Shown here piece after piece: positions 36,214 to 41,913 of a stretch of DNA of 49,644 nucleotides. The position numbers were made by a program, and so were the translations under genes. How positions within the stretch are numbered: the first letter of the stretch is position 1; the number at the start of each line of letters is the position of its first letter. The stretch spans positions 1 to 49,644 of the forward strand of contig JBJKYD010000008.1 of NCBI GenBank assembly GCA_045561295.1, read 5' to 3'. The notes beneath the pieces are model-generated. The model had not been told where the DNA came from. It saw only the letters and a program-made list of their open reading frames with translations, and made no database searches. Source of the stretch: Gammaproteobacteria bacterium. Lineage in GTDB: Bacteria; Pseudomonadota; Gammaproteobacteria; GCA-002705445; GCA-002716945.

Positions 36214-37593
36214 ATGAAAAAAAATAATAATAGGATTGAATCTGACTCATTAGGAAAAGTTAAAGTTCCGAAAAATGCCCTGTATGGCGCTCAAACACAA
36301 CGAGCGATAGATAACTTTAAAATTAGCGGCATTACTTTTGATCCTGCTTTTATCCAAGCTTTAGCTAGTCTAAAAAATGCATGCGCAAATGCTAATCTAA
36401 AGTGTAAAACATTAACTAATTCAAAAGCATCATGTATTTCAACAATTAGTAAGAAAATATCTAATAATCCTCTAGACTATATTGATCATTTTCCAGTTGA
36501 TATTTTTCAAACTGGTTCAGGAACTAGTACGAATATGAATATGAATGAGGTCATCTCTGAGGTTGCTAAAAGGGTTCATAAAAAATCAATACATCCTAAT
36601 GATGATGTTAACATGTCTCAAAGCTCAAATGATGTAATACCAACTACTATTAATATATCAAGTTTGACAATGAGCAAAACGCTTTCAACTTCATTAAACT
36701 TTTTATCTGAATCAATAAACAAGAAAGCTAAATCTTTATCACATATTATTAAATCTGGAAGAACTCATTTAATGGATGCTGTTCCAATATCTTTTGAACA
36801 AGAGCTTAATGTTTGGGAAGAGCAGGTTAGAGCATCTCAAGCTCAAGTGGACCTTTCTTGTGAAGAAATATCTTATTTACCTATAGGGGGAACTGCTATT
36901 GGAACTGGAATCAATGCTCCTAAGATGTTCGCAAAAAATGTTTGTAATGAATTAAACAAAATTTATAAAGAACTCAAAATTAAATTTAAACCTCTACTTG
37001 TAAAAGGTGAAATGATGAGCTCACAAAACCATATTCTAACTTTAAGCTCTTCTTTGACAAGATATGCTTCTTGCCTAACTAAAATAGCGAATGATATTCG
37101 CTGGATGAATAGTGGACCTATTTCAGGACTATCTGAAATATCTTTGAAACCACTCCAGCCTGGAAGCAGTATCATGCCAGGAAAGATTAATCCTGTAATA
37201 TCTGAATCAATCCTGATGGCTGCTGCTCATGTTAATGGAAACCACGTTACTATAATGCAGGCAAGTACCAGTGGAAGTTTTCAACTGAATACTATGTTAC
37301 CTTTGATAGCACATAATATCATCGAGTCACTATATCTAATGATTAATTGTACATTTAGTATGATTGAACTAATTGATAGTTTTAGTGTCAACGAGGATAA
37401 AGTTAAAGACAATCTATTTAGAAATCCTATTATTGCCACAAAACTTAATCAGGTCATTGGATATGATTTAGCCTCTAAAATAGTCAAAGAGGCTTATAAA
37501 ACAAATAGTTCTATTTTTGATATTGCAGAAAAAATGACGTCTCTTACTAAGTCAGAATTGATTAAAATACTAGATCCAAAAAAACTTATATAA
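36214..37593 (+). CDS. fumC: Fumarate hydratase class II
   Basis: YGAQTQRA, FQTGSGTSTNMN, HPNDDVNMSQSSND, GRTHLMDA, GSSIMPGKINP. Confidence 0.93.
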   Translation: MKKNNNRIESDSLGKVKVPKNALYGAQTQRAIDNFKISGITFDPAFIQALASLKNACANANLKCKTLTNSKASCISTISKKISNNPLDYIDHFPVDIFQTGSGTSTNMNMNEVISEVAKRVHKKSIHPNDDVNMSQSSNDVIPTTINISSLTMSKTLSTSLNFLSESINKKAKSLSHIIKSGRTHLMDAVPISFEQELNVWEEQVRASQAQVDLSCEEISYLPIGGTAIGTGINAPKMFAKNVCNELNKIYKELKIKFKPLLVKGEMMSSQNHILTLSSSLTRYASCLTKIANDIRWMNSGPISGLSEISLKPLQPGSSIMPGKINPVISESILMAAAHVNGNHVTIMQASTSGSFQLNTMLPLIAHNIIESLYLMINCTFSMIELIDSFSVNEDKVKDNLFRNPIIATKLNQVIGYDLASKIVKEAYKTNSSIFDIAEKMTSLTKSELIKILDPKKLI

Positions 37594-38241
37594 ATGAGTA
37601 AATCGAGCATAGATAATATTTTTATCTACTGGATTTATTTTATTTCTCTTATTTTTTTAGCATCTTATGCTTTAGAGTCTCTAGGATTTATATCTAGTAT
37701 ATTTCAGGAAGATATTAGCTATTTAACATCCCTGATTACTTTTATTCTTATCTTTTACTTATTTCAATGTGGTTATTATCTATATAAGCTCAGAGATGCA
37801 GTATTTTTCATTGAAACAAAAACTCATTATGATGATAGCAACCCTTTTATAATAATCTTAAGCGAATTTCAAATTGCAAATAATATTTTAAAAGATAAGC
37901 CTAAAGCATCACTACATGAAGAGTTTAAACTCAAACTTTATGAATTTGTTGATAATGGTTTTTTTATTTCTGACCTATTATTAAAATTAGGAATTATTGG
38001 GACAGTAATAGGCTTTATAATCATGTTAAGTTCCCTATCGGCTATAGATGAAATGAATATATCTAAAATGAACAATTTATTGCTCAGTATGAGCGCAGGA
38101 ATGAAAGTTGCTTTATACACAACTCTAACTGGACTAATTGGATCTATACTTTTATCAATTCAGTATAATTTTTTTGAAACTAAAATTAATATGTTTATTA
38201 ATCTAGTCATTAATATAGATAATTATGAGAAGAAGAAATAG
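37594..38241 (+). CDS. MotA/TolQ/ExbB proton-channel family membrane protein
   Basis: About four hydrophobic helices; LGIIGTVIG and GMKVALYTTLTGL are the family's last two TM signatures. Confidence 0.85.
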   Translation: MSKSSIDNIFIYWIYFISLIFLASYALESLGFISSIFQEDISYLTSLITFILIFYLFQCGYYLYKLRDAVFFIETKTHYDDSNPFIIILSEFQIANNILKDKPKASLHEEFKLKLYEFVDNGFFISDLLLKLGIIGTVIGFIIMLSSLSAIDEMNISKMNNLLLSMSAGMKVALYTTLTGLIGSILLSIQYNFFETKINMFINLVINIDNYEKKK

Positions 38242-38830
38242 AATTAGAACAGAGCCTTTTACGGATTTATTATTTAATACACTTCTAGGTTTCACATTTC
38301 TATTCTTTATAACGGTTCTTTTTATTAATCCTATTTCTAAAATAGGCAATGTTAATATGAAGGCAGAATATATTGTAACTGTTGATTGGAAAGACAGCTT
38401 ACCAGATGACGTTGATATATGGGTACAAGATCCAAACGGAGAGACAGTTTCTTATCTAAAAAAAGATGCAGGCTGGCTACATCTTGATCGAGATGATCAA
38501 GGTATAGTAAATGATGTAGTAACAATTGATGGTGAAGATATTATATATCCTATTAATAGAGAGGTTGTAACTCTAAGGGGCATTATTCCGGGCGAATATA
38601 TTTTAAATTTATATTTATATGAGCATAAAAGCGATCATCCAATCGATGTAAAAGTGATAATTGAAAAAGTAAACCCAACTTTGAAGTTAGTCTATGCAAA
38701 TAATATTACATTAGAAAAAAAAGATTCTGAAGTCACAGTAACAAGATTCTTTTTAGATGCGCAAGGAGAGTATTCATCTGGCGATAACCAAAAGAAAATA
38801 TTAACTCCGTACAACTTAAAAGGATTTTAA
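38225..38830 (+). CDS. MotB/ExbD-like single-TM partner (Asp in the TM) with a DUF2135-like soluble domain
   Basis: Basic N-terminus, TM segment PFTDLLFNTLLGF, then W...DDVDIWVQDPNGETVSY...LDRDD...E....PGEY. The domain call is from pattern memory. Confidence 0.65.
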   Translation: MRRRNRIRTEPFTDLLFNTLLGFTFLFFITVLFINPISKIGNVNMKAEYIVTVDWKDSLPDDVDIWVQDPNGETVSYLKKDAGWLHLDRDDQGIVNDVVTIDGEDIIYPINREVVTLRGIIPGEYILNLYLYEHKSDHPIDVKVIIEKVNPTLKLVYANNITLEKKDSEVTVTRFFLDAQGEYSSGDNQKKILTPYNLKGF

Positions 38831-38832
38831 AA

Positions 38833-39261
38833 ATGATATTATATCTTTATTTAATAGTTCTCCTAATAATATATATCATTCTTATTAGCCATTTTATTAA
38901 AGGTAAGAAATATAAACATAAGATATTAATAGTTTTAAGTATTTCAATATTATTTTCTTTCTTTTATGAAAGTATAAGAGAAAATGAGGGTTATGCTGTT
39001 ACAGAAAATCTACCCAAAAGTTTTTATGTACTAAATAGCTATGTATATGGAGACAACATCTTAATTTTAATCAAAGAAAACAACAATCGACCAAGGTTAT
39101 ACAAACTAAAAAAAACACTTAAACTAAATAAATTTCTAAAAAAATATAAAGGATTAAAAAATAATGGCCAAGATGTAATGGTAAAAAAGAATAATTCAAA
39201 GAGTGAAGACTCATTGGGCATGTATATTGAAAGTGTACAAAAGAAGTTGCCCCTCAAGTAA
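38833..39261 (+). CDS. Hypothetical membrane protein (two N-terminal TM helices and a basic soluble domain)
   Basis: 142-aa ORF starting 2 nt after the previous stop, preceded by AAGGA; two hydrophobic segments. Confidence 0.7.
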   Translation: MILYLYLIVLLIIYIILISHFIKGKKYKHKILIVLSISILFSFFYESIRENEGYAVTENLPKSFYVLNSYVYGDNILILIKENNNRPRLYKLKKTLKLNKFLKKYKGLKNNGQDVMVKKNNSKSEDSLGMYIESVQKKLPLK

Positions 39262-39327: not shown

Positions 39328-41913
39328 ATGTCAGAAAAATCAGAAATAACTATAAATAATAACAACTTCGATGTTTTTAATATAAATAAATACCAAATAA
39401 ATCACTTACCTTATTCTCTAAGGGTTTTAATGGAAAACTATTTAAGAAATGAATCTGATAATAATAAGTTTGACTCTATTATAGAAAAATTTACAAAATG
39501 GAATGGGAGCGCTGACGCTAATACCGAACTAACTTTTTATCCTAGTAGAGTTATTATGCAAGATTTTACCGGTGTACCTGCAGTAGTTGACTTAGCGTCA
39601 ATGAGAGATGCAATGACATCCTTAGATGAGAGTAAAGCTGATGCAGTCAACCCACAGTGCCAAACTGACTTAGTAATAGATCATTCTGTCATGGTTGATC
39701 ACTTTGGCACCTCTGAATCTAAAGATCTTAATACCAAGCTTGAATATGAGAGAAATACGGAAAGATATAAACTCTTAAAATGGGGTCAGCAAGCATTTAA
39801 AAATTTAAGAATAGTTCCACCTAACAACGGAATTATCCATCAGATCAACATTGAATATATTGCCAGGGTAATATATGAAAAAGAGGGACAGCTTTACCCT
39901 GACACAGTGGTTGGGACTGATTCACACACGACAATGGTAAATGGTCTCGGTGTTCTTGGATGGGGAGTTGGAGGGATTGAAGCTGAAGCTGCTATGTTAG
40001 GACAACCTATTCCTATGCTACTTCCAGAAGTAATTGGTTTTGAATTGACCGGTAAACTTGGTCAAACAACGACGGCAACAGATCTTGTGCTCACAATTGT
40101 CCAGATGCTTAGAGAAAAAAATGTTGTTGGTAAATTTGTTGAATTTTATGGCTCAGGACTAGATAACTTGAGTATAGCTGATAGATGTACAATCTCAAAC
40201 ATGGCTCCTGAGTATGGTGCTACTTGTGGATTTTTCCCAGTAGATGCTTTGACAATCGATTATTTGAAAATGACTGGTAAAGATGAAGATCATCTTGCAG
40301 TAGTAGAACAGTATAGTAAGACGTGCGGATTTTTTAGAGATGATAGTCAAGATATTAAATATACAAGCTCATTATCTTTAGATATGGGAGATGTTGAAGC
40401 TTGTCTCTCAGGTCCTAAACGACCACAAGATAGAGTTCTTCTCTCTGATGTTAAAGATGTATCTGAAAGAGAGATAAAGAAATTAAAAAAATCGCCCAGT
40501 TCAGATGGCGTGATTAATGATGGCGACATTCTTATTGCTGCTATAACAAGTTGTACTAATACATCAAATCCAAGTGTAATTTTGGGAGCAGGCTTGCTAG
40601 CAAAAAGGGCAGTAGAGAAAGGACTGGCAACGAAAGAATGGGTCAAGACATCACTCGCTCCAGGCTCTAGAGTTGTAGAAAACTATTTGAAAAAAGCAAA
40701 TCTTTTGGATTCGCTTAATAAGTTAGGTTTTAATATTGTTGGTTATGGGTGTACGACATGCATAGGGAATTCTGGACCACTCGATAATGAATATGTAAAA
40801 GAAATTAATGATAGAGATCTTGTTGTGAGCTCAATACTATCTGGAAACAGAAACTTTGAGGGAAGAATTCATCCAGAAATTAAGATGAATTTCCTTGCAA
40901 GCCCAATGCTAGTTGTAGCTTATTCACTTGTAGGAAAAATTAATGTAAATATAAATACAATCTCTCTAGGAAAAGACTCAAATGGTAACGATGTTTATTT
41001 AAAAGATATTTGGCCAAGTAATGACGAAATTAATAAAGTTATGACTAAAACTATTGATGGAGAAATGTTTAACCAGTCATACAAAAACCTTTTTGAAGGT
41101 GATAGTAATTGGATGTCTATTCCAACTTCTGACTCTGATAGATTCGATTGGGATGAAGAATCTACATACATTCAACCATCTCCATTTTTTGGTAAAGAAA
41201 AAGATGATCAAGAAAAATTACCTGCAATTGAAAATGCTTATCCACTTGTTATTTTGGGAGATAGTGTCACTACAGATCATATTTCACCTGCAGGATCTTT
41301 TAAGGATACAACTCCAGCCGGTAAACATTTGATTGATAATTCTGTGAATATTAAAGATTTTAATTCGTATGGATCCAGAAGAGGTAATTTCAAGATTATG
41401 CAAAGGGGCACTTTTGCGAATATCCGTTTATCAAATAAACTTGTTCCAGAGAAAACTGGTGGGTTCACAAAACTTTTGCCTCAAGGTAAAGAGATGTCAA
41501 TTTATGATGCAGCTCAAGAATATAAGAAAAGCGGCACTAACCTTATAATATTTGCTGGTAAAGATTATGGATGTGGATCATCGCGAGATTGGGCAGCAAA
41601 AGGCACTAAGTTGCTTGGTGTGAAGGCAGTCATTGCTGAGAGTTTTGAGCGAATTCATAGGTCAAATTTGGTAGGGATGGGAATTATGCCTCTTCAATTT
41701 AATAATGATGACAGCTTTGAAGCGCTTGGATTGAGTATGAATTCTTCTTTTGATATAGCAGAGATTAAGAAGGATGCAGATACCGTTACAATCACAGAAA
41801 AAGAAACGGGTAAATCTTTTGAGGCTAAAGTTAGAATTGATACAGAAAAAGAATGGGAATATTTCGTTAGTGACGGAATACTAAACTACGTCCTTAAAAA
41901 ACTTGCCAACTAA
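39328..41913 (+). CDS. acnA: Aconitate hydratase A
   Basis: QDFTGVP, DHSV, GTDSHT, AAITSCTNTSNP, GCTTCIGNSG, SGNRNFEGR, GSSRDWAAKG. Confidence 0.97.
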   Translation: MSEKSEITINNNNFDVFNINKYQINHLPYSLRVLMENYLRNESDNNKFDSIIEKFTKWNGSADANTELTFYPSRVIMQDFTGVPAVVDLASMRDAMTSLDESKADAVNPQCQTDLVIDHSVMVDHFGTSESKDLNTKLEYERNTERYKLLKWGQQAFKNLRIVPPNNGIIHQINIEYIARVIYEKEGQLYPDTVVGTDSHTTMVNGLGVLGWGVGGIEAEAAMLGQPIPMLLPEVIGFELTGKLGQTTTATDLVLTIVQMLREKNVVGKFVEFYGSGLDNLSIADRCTISNMAPEYGATCGFFPVDALTIDYLKMTGKDEDHLAVVEQYSKTCGFFRDDSQDIKYTSSLSLDMGDVEACLSGPKRPQDRVLLSDVKDVSEREIKKLKKSPSSDGVINDGDILIAAITSCTNTSNPSVILGAGLLAKRAVEKGLATKEWVKTSLAPGSRVVENYLKKANLLDSLNKLGFNIVGYGCTTCIGNSGPLDNEYVKEINDRDLVVSSILSGNRNFEGRIHPEIKMNFLASPMLVVAYSLVGKINVNINTISLGKDSNGNDVYLKDIWPSNDEINKVMTKTIDGEMFNQSYKNLFEGDSNWMSIPTSDSDRFDWDEESTYIQPSPFFGKEKDDQEKLPAIENAYPLVILGDSVTTDHISPAGSFKDTTPAGKHLIDNSVNIKDFNSYGSRRGNFKIMQRGTFANIRLSNKLVPEKTGGFTKLLPQGKEMSIYDAAQEYKKSGTNLIIFAGKDYGCGSSRDWAAKGTKLLGVKAVIAESFERIHRSNLVGMGIMPLQFNNDDSFEALGLSMNSSFDIAEIKKDADTVTITEKETGKSFEAKVRIDTEKEWEYFVSDGILNYVLKKLAN

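Follow-up and report, generated by a model that had tools for sequence, protein, structure and literature searches.

A conserved three-gene relative of MotA/ExbB-type ion-driven motors, scattered through Pseudomonadota and carried by phages

We analysed a 49,644-nt stretch of DNA (the window) from a Gammaproteobacteria bacterium (GenBank assembly GCA_045561295.1, contig JBJKYD010000008.1) and concentrated on three plus-strand genes at 37594–39261, between fumC and acnA, which we refer to as the cassette. The trio is a real, conserved and undescribed variant of the 5:2 kind of motor. That it is real, far beyond chance, follows from the match of gene 1 to the Pfam family MotA_ExbB (PF01618, E 8.4e-10), from the thousands of relatives of gene 2 and from the preservation of the gene order in distant genomes. 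We consider it probable that the three proteins are subunits of one inner-membrane machine, forming an undescribed family within the MotA/ExbB/TolQ class of 5:2 ion-driven motors. By analogy, the design of the machine would be like that of ExbB-ExbD-TonB or TolQ-TolR-TolA, while it would belong to neither.

The genes are tightly coupled, and the list of open reading frames (ORFs) reproduces exactly the layout given by the initial annotation, which a model had made from the letters of the window. Gene 1, the putative A subunit (37594–38241, 215 aa), opens with an ATG at the very next base after the stop of fumC (36214–37593). Gene 2, the putative B subunit (38225–38830, 201 aa), overlaps it by 17 nt, and gene 3, the putative C subunit (38833–39261, 142 aa), follows after a gap of 2 nt, with acnA starting downstream at 39328. 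A terminator scan found no plus-strand terminator-like sites between fumC and acnA, and a promoter scan found fewer promoter-like sites than in shuffles.

We next assessed conservation in 160 loci, comprising the best 80 of 572 bacterial gene 2 relatives (from 599 pattern-matched stretches in a genome collection) and the best 80 of 202 viral relatives (from 237 matched stretches in IMG/VR). Gene 1 lay directly upstream of gene 2 in 79/80 bacterial loci, and in 78/80 the gene directly downstream of gene 2 was a gene 3 homologue by an iterated profile, the exceptions in both cases being contig ends. Among the viral loci, gene 1 was upstream in 78/80 (two were cut) and gene 3 downstream in 80/80, adjacent in 76. 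By comparison, fumC was upstream in only 17/80 bacterial loci and acnA downstream in 14/80, all of them the closest relatives; elsewhere the neighbours were unrelated housekeeping genes. The flanks vary beyond the closest relatives, so what is conserved as a unit is the trio, and no general conserved neighbour beyond it emerged among 25 diverse loci. A lack of conservation in other genomes, which the initial annotation had named as grounds for dropping its idea, is not what the neighbourhoods show: the three genes stay together across distant bacteria.

Gene 1 is a divergent membrane protein of the MotA/ExbB superfamily. PF01618 matched its residues 132–203 (model positions 59–123 of 127) with 38.9 bits against a cut-off of 22.9, a match confirmed by a search of the whole genome. 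All named models scored far lower than their own cut-offs in NCBIfam, including ZorA_2 (22.5 bits, cut-off 100, E 5.3e-5), TolQ (18.4 bits, cut-off 221), MotP (13.5 bits, cut-off 373), ExbB (13.3 bits, cut-off 206.2) and PomA (10.7 bits, cut-off 341), and the best of the PADLOC ZorA models reached 23.4 bits (E 5.8e-6). Hydropathy gives four hydrophobic segments in gene 1 and two in gene 3, matching the counts proposed at the outset. With a cytoplasmic loop of ~65 residues and a C-terminal tail of ~25 residues, gene 1 resembles MotA in topology and has hardly any mass in the cytoplasm. Its translation contains the motifs LGIIGTVIGF and GMKVALYTTLTGL quoted by the initial annotation, and a 36-row alignment gives the family motifs as D-L-x-L-K-L-G-L-L-G-T-V-I-G-F and G-M-x-V-A-L-Y-T-T-L-x-G-L. 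The Thr and Gly residues of the corresponding LGxxGTVxGF and ALYTTLxGL motifs were kept in 79/79 bacterial and in 66–78 of 78 viral homologues. T137 was present in 79/79 bacterial and 77/78 viral proteins, T177 in 79/79 and 78/78, and T176 in 79/79 bacterial proteins with T or S in 78/78 viral ones; G133, G136 and G140 were likewise conserved in both sets. T137 and T177 are the presumed counterparts of ExbB T148 and T181.

A quick-search tree was built from the C-terminal parts of 80 proteins (133 columns). It held 37 bacterial cassette proteins, among them the window's own and one (L219) that came from the five genomes named next, and 13 viral ones, taken as every sixth match, together with 29 PF01618 paralogues from five cassette-bearing genomes, classed by NCBIfam, and the ExbB-like protein of the window's own genome. 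All 50 cassette proteins fell on one branch with a Shimodaira–Hasegawa-like approximate likelihood ratio test (SH-aLRT) support of 93 and a length of 1.62, apart from the 24 ExbB/TolQ-type rows (SH-aLRT 95) and the 5 MotA/PomA-type rows (SH-aLRT 95). Within the cassette branch, bacterial copies grouped together apart from viral ones (SH-aLRT 81). Pfam, NCBIfam and the tree therefore agree with the initial annotation in placing gene 1 in the MotA/ExbB superfamily without making it a canonical ExbB, TolQ, MotA or ZorA.

Gene 2 encodes a basic N-terminus, one membrane helix, a linker and a predicted periplasmic head. Searches against Pfam, NCBIfam and PADLOC assigned it to no family, and no Pfam family matched even at E <= 1. 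Its relatives are numerous: 3086 of 3149 candidates at E <= 1e-3, and 1771 representative clusters in a profile search, 1125 of them at E <= 1e-10. Wherever they are named, they are named "hypothetical protein", including in cultured Bradyrhizobium. The motifs quoted for gene 2 by the initial annotation (PFTDLLF, DDVDIWVQDPNG, LDRDD and PGEY) are all found in its translation. The first surrounds Asp14 (codon 38264–38266, in PFTDLLFN), within the membrane helix that an AlphaFold2 model places at residues 10–33 (38252–38323). In an alignment of 57 rows with 31–76% identity to the window protein, W55, D62, D64, L87, D90, G93 and E113 were invariant and D14 nearly so. Across the 160 loci, W55, D62, D64, D90, D91, E113 and R118 were kept in every one, and Asp14 in 159 (79/80 bacterial, 80/80 viral), the exception being a contig end. 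In keeping with the initial annotation, Pfam found neither an ExbD nor an OmpA-like domain in gene 2, and its membrane helix carries an Asp.

The AlphaFold2 model made from the 57-row alignment had a mean predicted local distance difference test (pLDDT) score of 90.3 and showed the helix, a linker of ~15 residues and a beta-sandwich at residues 49–185 (38369–38779). It supersedes an earlier model from 13 close relatives (pLDDT 64.5), for which Foldseek gave no match at E <= 1e-3. An exhaustive structure search with VIA-align matched the new model to the TerD homologue 2qz7_B (Z 9.3, 132 aligned residues, root-mean-square deviation 4.1) and then to the TerD-family structure 2kxt (Z 8.6 over 133 residues), the next fold having a Z of 5.9; Foldseek agreed with a TerD fold (E 3.4e-4). 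At the sequence level, TerD was not among the 25 commonest of the 27 Pfam families matched by the 57 relatives, and a search of Protein Data Bank sequences with the gene 2 profile gave nothing below E 0.13. TerD-family proteins bind Ca2+, and Ca2+ or a similar cation is the probable ligand of the acidic cluster of gene 2 (D62, D64, D90, D91 and E113), judging from the modelled fold.

The initial annotation had called the head DUF2135-like. That label stands on remote-homology methods and fails on the Pfam DUF2135 model itself. PF09906 did not match the window's gene 2, matched 1/57 relatives at E 0.063, and missed the window when searched genome-wide. By hhalign, the 57-row profile matched a YfaP-like protein from another genome (at locus L095), the one target compared, with a probability of 89.3 and E 2.1e-6 over 77 columns; that protein itself scores 50.2 bits to PF09906. 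The two share the motifs D.DL.V..P.G, LD.D and PG.Y, and the gene 2 family has a ~16-residue insertion relative to the YfaP-like protein. An Atlas neighbour cluster of gene 2 scoring 0.98 was also auto-named "YfaP (DUF2135 family)". A profile match without a Pfam match indicates that the DUF2135 label denotes remote homology and not membership.

We also looked for longer forms of gene 2. A search in which finding nothing carries little weight gave one 406-aa protein on a 1.4-kb contig, with unrelated Pfam domains and probably a bad gene call. Among 12 mid-length relatives, Pfam found an extra domain (MotA_ExbB) in P0195 only. This 411-aa database protein, a single case, has its MotA_ExbB match at residues 160–230 and its gene 2 region at 268–407, and is either a natural fusion of gene 1 and gene 2 or a read-through gene call.

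Gene 3 matched no family in Pfam, NCBIfam or PADLOC. After two N-terminal membrane helices, its relatives share a conserved stretch of ~60 residues with the pattern G-[WY]-[PA] ... L-P-x-x-F ... P-R-x-Y ... L-H, then a linker of varying length (about a dozen residues in the window's version) and an end motif of the type F-x-D-L-P-x-x-L-P-x-K, which in the window is a C-terminal LPLK. G53 was invariant, and R88 was kept in 78/78 bacterial and 67/80 viral proteins. Within their last 20 residues, 66/78 bacterial and 41/80 viral gene 3 proteins had the pattern [LFMIVP]P.[KR], compared with 58/1286 and 33/926 control ORFs of >= 120 aa from the same bacterial and viral loci, respectively. Because Lys and Arg sit in the loop between the helices (median 2) and none at the N-terminus (27/36 rows with two helices called), the sequences suggest that the C-terminal domain is periplasmic. 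In phages, gene 3 reaches up to 270 aa through Gly/Glu/Lys-rich low-complexity linkers with the end motif kept; inspection by eye of the longer viral proteins, on which no family search was run, showed no recognisable extra domain. Atlas matches of gene 3 were viral "hypothetical" clusters (0.91–0.92) and one structural neighbour in a lysozyme-bearing cluster, and we do not rely on them. In one genome (G153, locus L096), genes 1 and 2 are followed by two gene 3 paralogues in tandem, at 1756–2280 (174 aa) and 2298–2810 (170 aa).

The cassette is not peculiar to the streamlined host genome, a point that the initial annotation had missed: it is scattered through Pseudomonadota and carried by phages. 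Gene 2 was present in 22/24 genomes of the host family and in 4/16 other families of the class, and Bradyrhizobium has TolQ and ExbB paralogues in addition to the cassette. Among named records, the closest bear the label of uncultured marine Gammaproteobacteria. The fumC-cassette-acnA order also occurs in records labelled Flavobacteriaceae and Pelagibacterales (L017, P0016), whose gene 2 is 76–95% identical to the window's; these labels are probably binning or naming errors. One genome (G185, contig C4) has two cassettes 40 kb apart (~48.2 kb and 88.0 kb), with one gene 2 copy in a 378-aa frame containing a TAA stop.

Among phages, relatives of gene 2 with 35–36% identity occur in 29 records (27 Rhizobium, 2 Sinorhizobium). 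Rhizobium phage RHph_I1_9 has the whole trio (148, 200 and 144 aa, all annotated as hypothetical) between gyrase genes and a late sigma factor. Terminase, head protease, head-tail adaptor and primase families from PHROGs in nine annotated viral loci identify these loci as phages, and in the same nine no PHROGs family matched any cassette protein at E <= 1e-8. Viral gene 1 proteins are shorter still than the window's, at 147–210 aa. On one of the nine, a large phage contig (L130, 3687–5075), the genes directly upstream of the cassette encode an endolysin and an Rz-like spanin.

The host assembly, with the window as its contig C8, comprises 1.03 Mb in 19 contigs at ~30% G+C, and is rated 92% complete and 6.8% contaminated; we presume the host to be a SAR86-type organism. 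The genome's only other PF01618 gene lies on contig C13 with two ExbD genes, two TonB-dependent receptors and the single TonB_C match. In this region (~11.9–18.8 kb), TonB and the two ExbD genes are on the minus strand, followed by the two receptors and then the ExbB-like gene, and the three motor proteins all score below the NCBIfam cut-offs for TolQ, ExbB, TolR and ExbD. As the C13 genes account for the Ton system, the cassette is a second, separate motor. Gene 1 has its own branch in the tree, and the genome's only TonB stands beside a different ExbB/ExbD set, so that a further objection foreseen by the initial annotation, a gene 1 nested in canonical ExbB/TolQ with its TonB or TolA elsewhere, does not hold.

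FliG (FliG_C), TolB and the OmpA-like domain were not found in the 92%-complete host genome. Across 25 host-family genomes (24 plus the window's own), all drafts in which absence means not found, TolB exceeded its cut-off in 0/25, with one sub-cut-off match at E <= 0.001 (G021), and the OmpA-like domain was found in 0/25; 15/16 other families of the class have both. The host family thus seems to be without Tol-Pal and without any wall anchor of the OmpA type. A simple complementarity between the cassette and Tol-Pal was rejected, since the cassette coexists with TolB and OmpA-like proteins in four genomes of other families (G034, G036, G038 and G039), and another genome (G031) is without cassette, TolB and OmpA-like proteins alike.

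We then compared the trio with known systems. With ExbB-ExbD-TonB and TolQ-TolR-TolA it has in common the A-subunit superfamily with Thr-bearing pore helices, a one-helix Asp partner, a third anchored protein with a linker and C-terminal element, and the three-gene operon. It differs in that gene 1 has four hydrophobic segments instead of three, scores 13–18 bits against cut-offs above 200 and has a separate branch; the gene 2 head has a TerD fold and YfaP kinship in place of an ExbD/TolR domain; and gene 3 has a helical hairpin and no SHLS motif, TonB_C or TolA domain. MotAB and PomAB share the four-helix A subunit and the Asp-bearing partner helix, whereas gene 1 scores 10–14 bits against 341–373, its loop is only ~65 residues, the OmpA-like domain is missing and no FliG was found in the genome. 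ZorAB is alike in its MotA-like topology, and ZorA models are the best-scoring named models for gene 1; however, the scores are far below cut-off, only ~25 residues follow the last helix in place of a long tail, the ZorB domain and ZorC/D/E are missing, and the cassette occupies a fixed core-genome site. The gene 2 head shares motifs with YfaP/DUF2135 and differs by the ~16-residue insertion and the fused membrane helix, and it shares its fold with TerD (Z 9.3) without belonging to that family by sequence.

The closest parallel is with predicted TolQ-like motors of unknown function whose partners join an Asp-bearing "transpore helix" to a vWA domain (Mol Biol Evol 2025;42:msaf138, PMC12204202). 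As described in the section of that paper devoted to them, these also pair a TolQ/MotA-like protein with an Asp helix fused to a non-ExbD, non-OmpA head, and direct force transmission from inside the pentamer is proposed there, a further likeness. By contrast, the cassette head is a YfaP/TerD-related beta-sandwich and not a vWA domain, and the cassette has one B gene instead of a heterologous pair, a conserved third gene and carriage by phages; that section does not describe the cassette family. Our literature search, which did not cover subscription journals, found no description of the trio, nothing on DUF2135 and nothing linking SAR86 with Tol-Pal.

On the reading that we favour, a single ion-driven machine, five gene 1 copies would surround two gene 2 helices (seven chains, 1477 residues), and protons (or Na+) would pass via Asp14 and the Thr ring, rotating one part relative to the other. 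The heads of gene 2 would sit ~15 residues above the membrane. Gene 3, anchored by its helical hairpin with its domain in the periplasm, would ride on the motor or be worked by it, and would pass the work on through its variable linker and short C-terminal LPxK-type motif to a target that may be some envelope component. By synteny and architecture, gene 3 is a candidate output subunit. Our best guess for the physiological role is housekeeping of the cell envelope, which phages supply for themselves too.

Several results weigh against this reading. Of gene 1, PF01618 takes in the last two helices only, and the tree has long branches over its 133 columns and leaves out ZorA, GldL and AglR. When gene 2 was compared with the genome's own ExbD by hhalign, the probability was 0.8%, with nine columns around the Asp aligned and no significance, and Pfam ExbD matched 1/57 gene 2 relatives (E 0.005). 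With no demonstrable ExbD similarity, the assignment of gene 2 as a B subunit rests on its architecture, Asp and synteny. The putative Ca2+ site is deduced from the fold and the acidic residues, not from inspected coordinates. TonB and TolA bind their motors through a Ser/His (SHLS-type) motif, and helix 1 of gene 3 has no conserved His or Ser in the 36-row alignment, hence no such motif. A complex prediction with one gene 1, two gene 2 and one gene 3 chains, a 1:2:1 mix and not the expected 5:2, scored 0.04 and 0.02 against a mark of 0.32, values that speak neither for nor against binding; the 5:2 assembly with a gene 1 ring is one that we infer. As for distribution, 15/401 sampled Pseudomonadota genomes have the cassette and 386/401 are without it. 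In the same-genus genome G003 (contig C2, 651160–651760), gene 2 is in three pieces with TGA and TAA stops, and may be a pseudogene or an assembly error; broken there, it implies that the cassette is not indispensable everywhere.

The seeming absence of Tol-Pal from the host family raises the question of whether the cassette takes over the function of Tol-Pal or of a Ton-like energiser. Gene 3, in the place of TolA or TonB, would then connect the energised inner membrane with the wall or outer membrane, as the only such link serving envelope integrity or division in a streamlined lineage. The family-wide lack of TolB and the OmpA-like domain where 15/16 other families have both, the retention of the cassette in 22/24 family genomes, the anchor, variable linker and end motif of gene 3, and the presence of envelope genes among some neighbours (IspA/YciB, YkuD L,D-transpeptidase, BamD) are all in keeping with such a role. 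We nonetheless think it unlikely, given the four genomes that carry both the cassette and TolB with OmpA-like proteins, the one that lacks all of these, the TolQ and ExbB paralogues that Bradyrhizobium has besides the cassette, the lack of a TonB_C or TolA domain or SHLS-type motif in gene 3, and a linker of about a dozen residues that is too short to span the periplasm. We give similarly little credence to a bolder form of the motor reading, in which the cassette would be a fourth major branch of 5:2 motors beside the flagellar, Ton/Tol and gliding/type IX secretion branches, would, in this abundant marine lineage, be all that joins the energised inner membrane to the outer envelope, in the role of Tol-Pal, and would serve large phages to hold or reshape the host envelope during infection.

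The trio could instead be a gated ion channel or sensor, whose head senses a cation or the state of the envelope and opens a proton leak by which bacteria tune their membrane potential, and phages time lysis or exclude other phages. The acidic cluster, invariant and set on the fold of the Ca2+-binding TerD proteins, would suit a sensor, the minimal cytoplasmic parts of gene 1 (in phages a still shorter protein of 147–210 aa) leave no MotA-like torque interface, no peptidoglycan-anchoring domain is present, and on L130 the cassette directly follows lysis genes. That last adjacency, however, holds for 1/9 annotated viral loci only, and a third subunit present in 158/160 loci, with its linker and end motif, is more in line with transmission than with gating. 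Moreover, the studied members of the superfamily all couple ion flow to mechanical work, according to two reviews (PMC9389320, PMC12204202), and we hold the channel reading to be quite improbable. Least credible, with very little in its favour overall, is a Zorya-like defence against phages or, where phages carry it, a module for counter-defence or superinfection exclusion. ZorA models do give the best named matches to gene 1 in both NCBIfam (E 5.3e-5) and PADLOC (E 5.8e-6), the cassette is common to phages and bacteria, and its distribution among genomes is patchy. Yet ZorA scores 22.5 bits where its cut-off is 100, gene 1 lacks a long tail of the ZorA type, neither a ZorB peptidoglycan-binding domain nor a ZorC/D/E neighbour is present, and bacterial copies form one group apart from viral ones (SH-aLRT 81). 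The fixed fumC-acnA site in the host lineage and the presence in 22/24 family genomes amount to the behaviour of a core gene, unlike that of a defence island.

The surroundings of the cassette were annotated with Pfam. In the window, its flanking genes encode adenylosuccinate lyase (purB), fumarase C, aconitase, DUF489 and an MnmA-type tRNA methyltransferase, and none of the adjacent genes is a flagellar, TonB/TolA, Pal or Zorya partner, just as the initial annotation had reported. In 4 of the 25 diverse loci (L036, L046, L053 and L072), the gene directly upstream, on the same strand, encodes a DUF255 thioredoxin-like protein of ~600 aa, and in one other (L032) a DUF255 protein is downstream on the opposite strand. 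Other recurrent neighbours were IspA in 4 and YkuD with DUF302 in 3, and a vWA-FHA membrane protein lies just downstream of gene 3 in 2 (L084 and L089).

To our knowledge, only a handful of ways exist to carry energy out of the inner membrane and into the periplasm or outer membrane, all of them MotA/ExbB-type motors. The cassette is a compact three-protein version whose two partner proteins come from families without names, retained in genomes of ~1 Mb from which Tol-Pal and all wall-binding proteins of the OmpA-like kind appear to have been lost. Its occurrence in culturable Bradyrhizobium and in isolated Rhizobium phages makes it ecologically widespread and open to experiment. We know of no function for E. 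coli YfaP, and the YfaP/DUF2135 domain would gain its first functional context here. Finding the target of the cassette would add a new output to this class of motors and could explain why phages invest in it.

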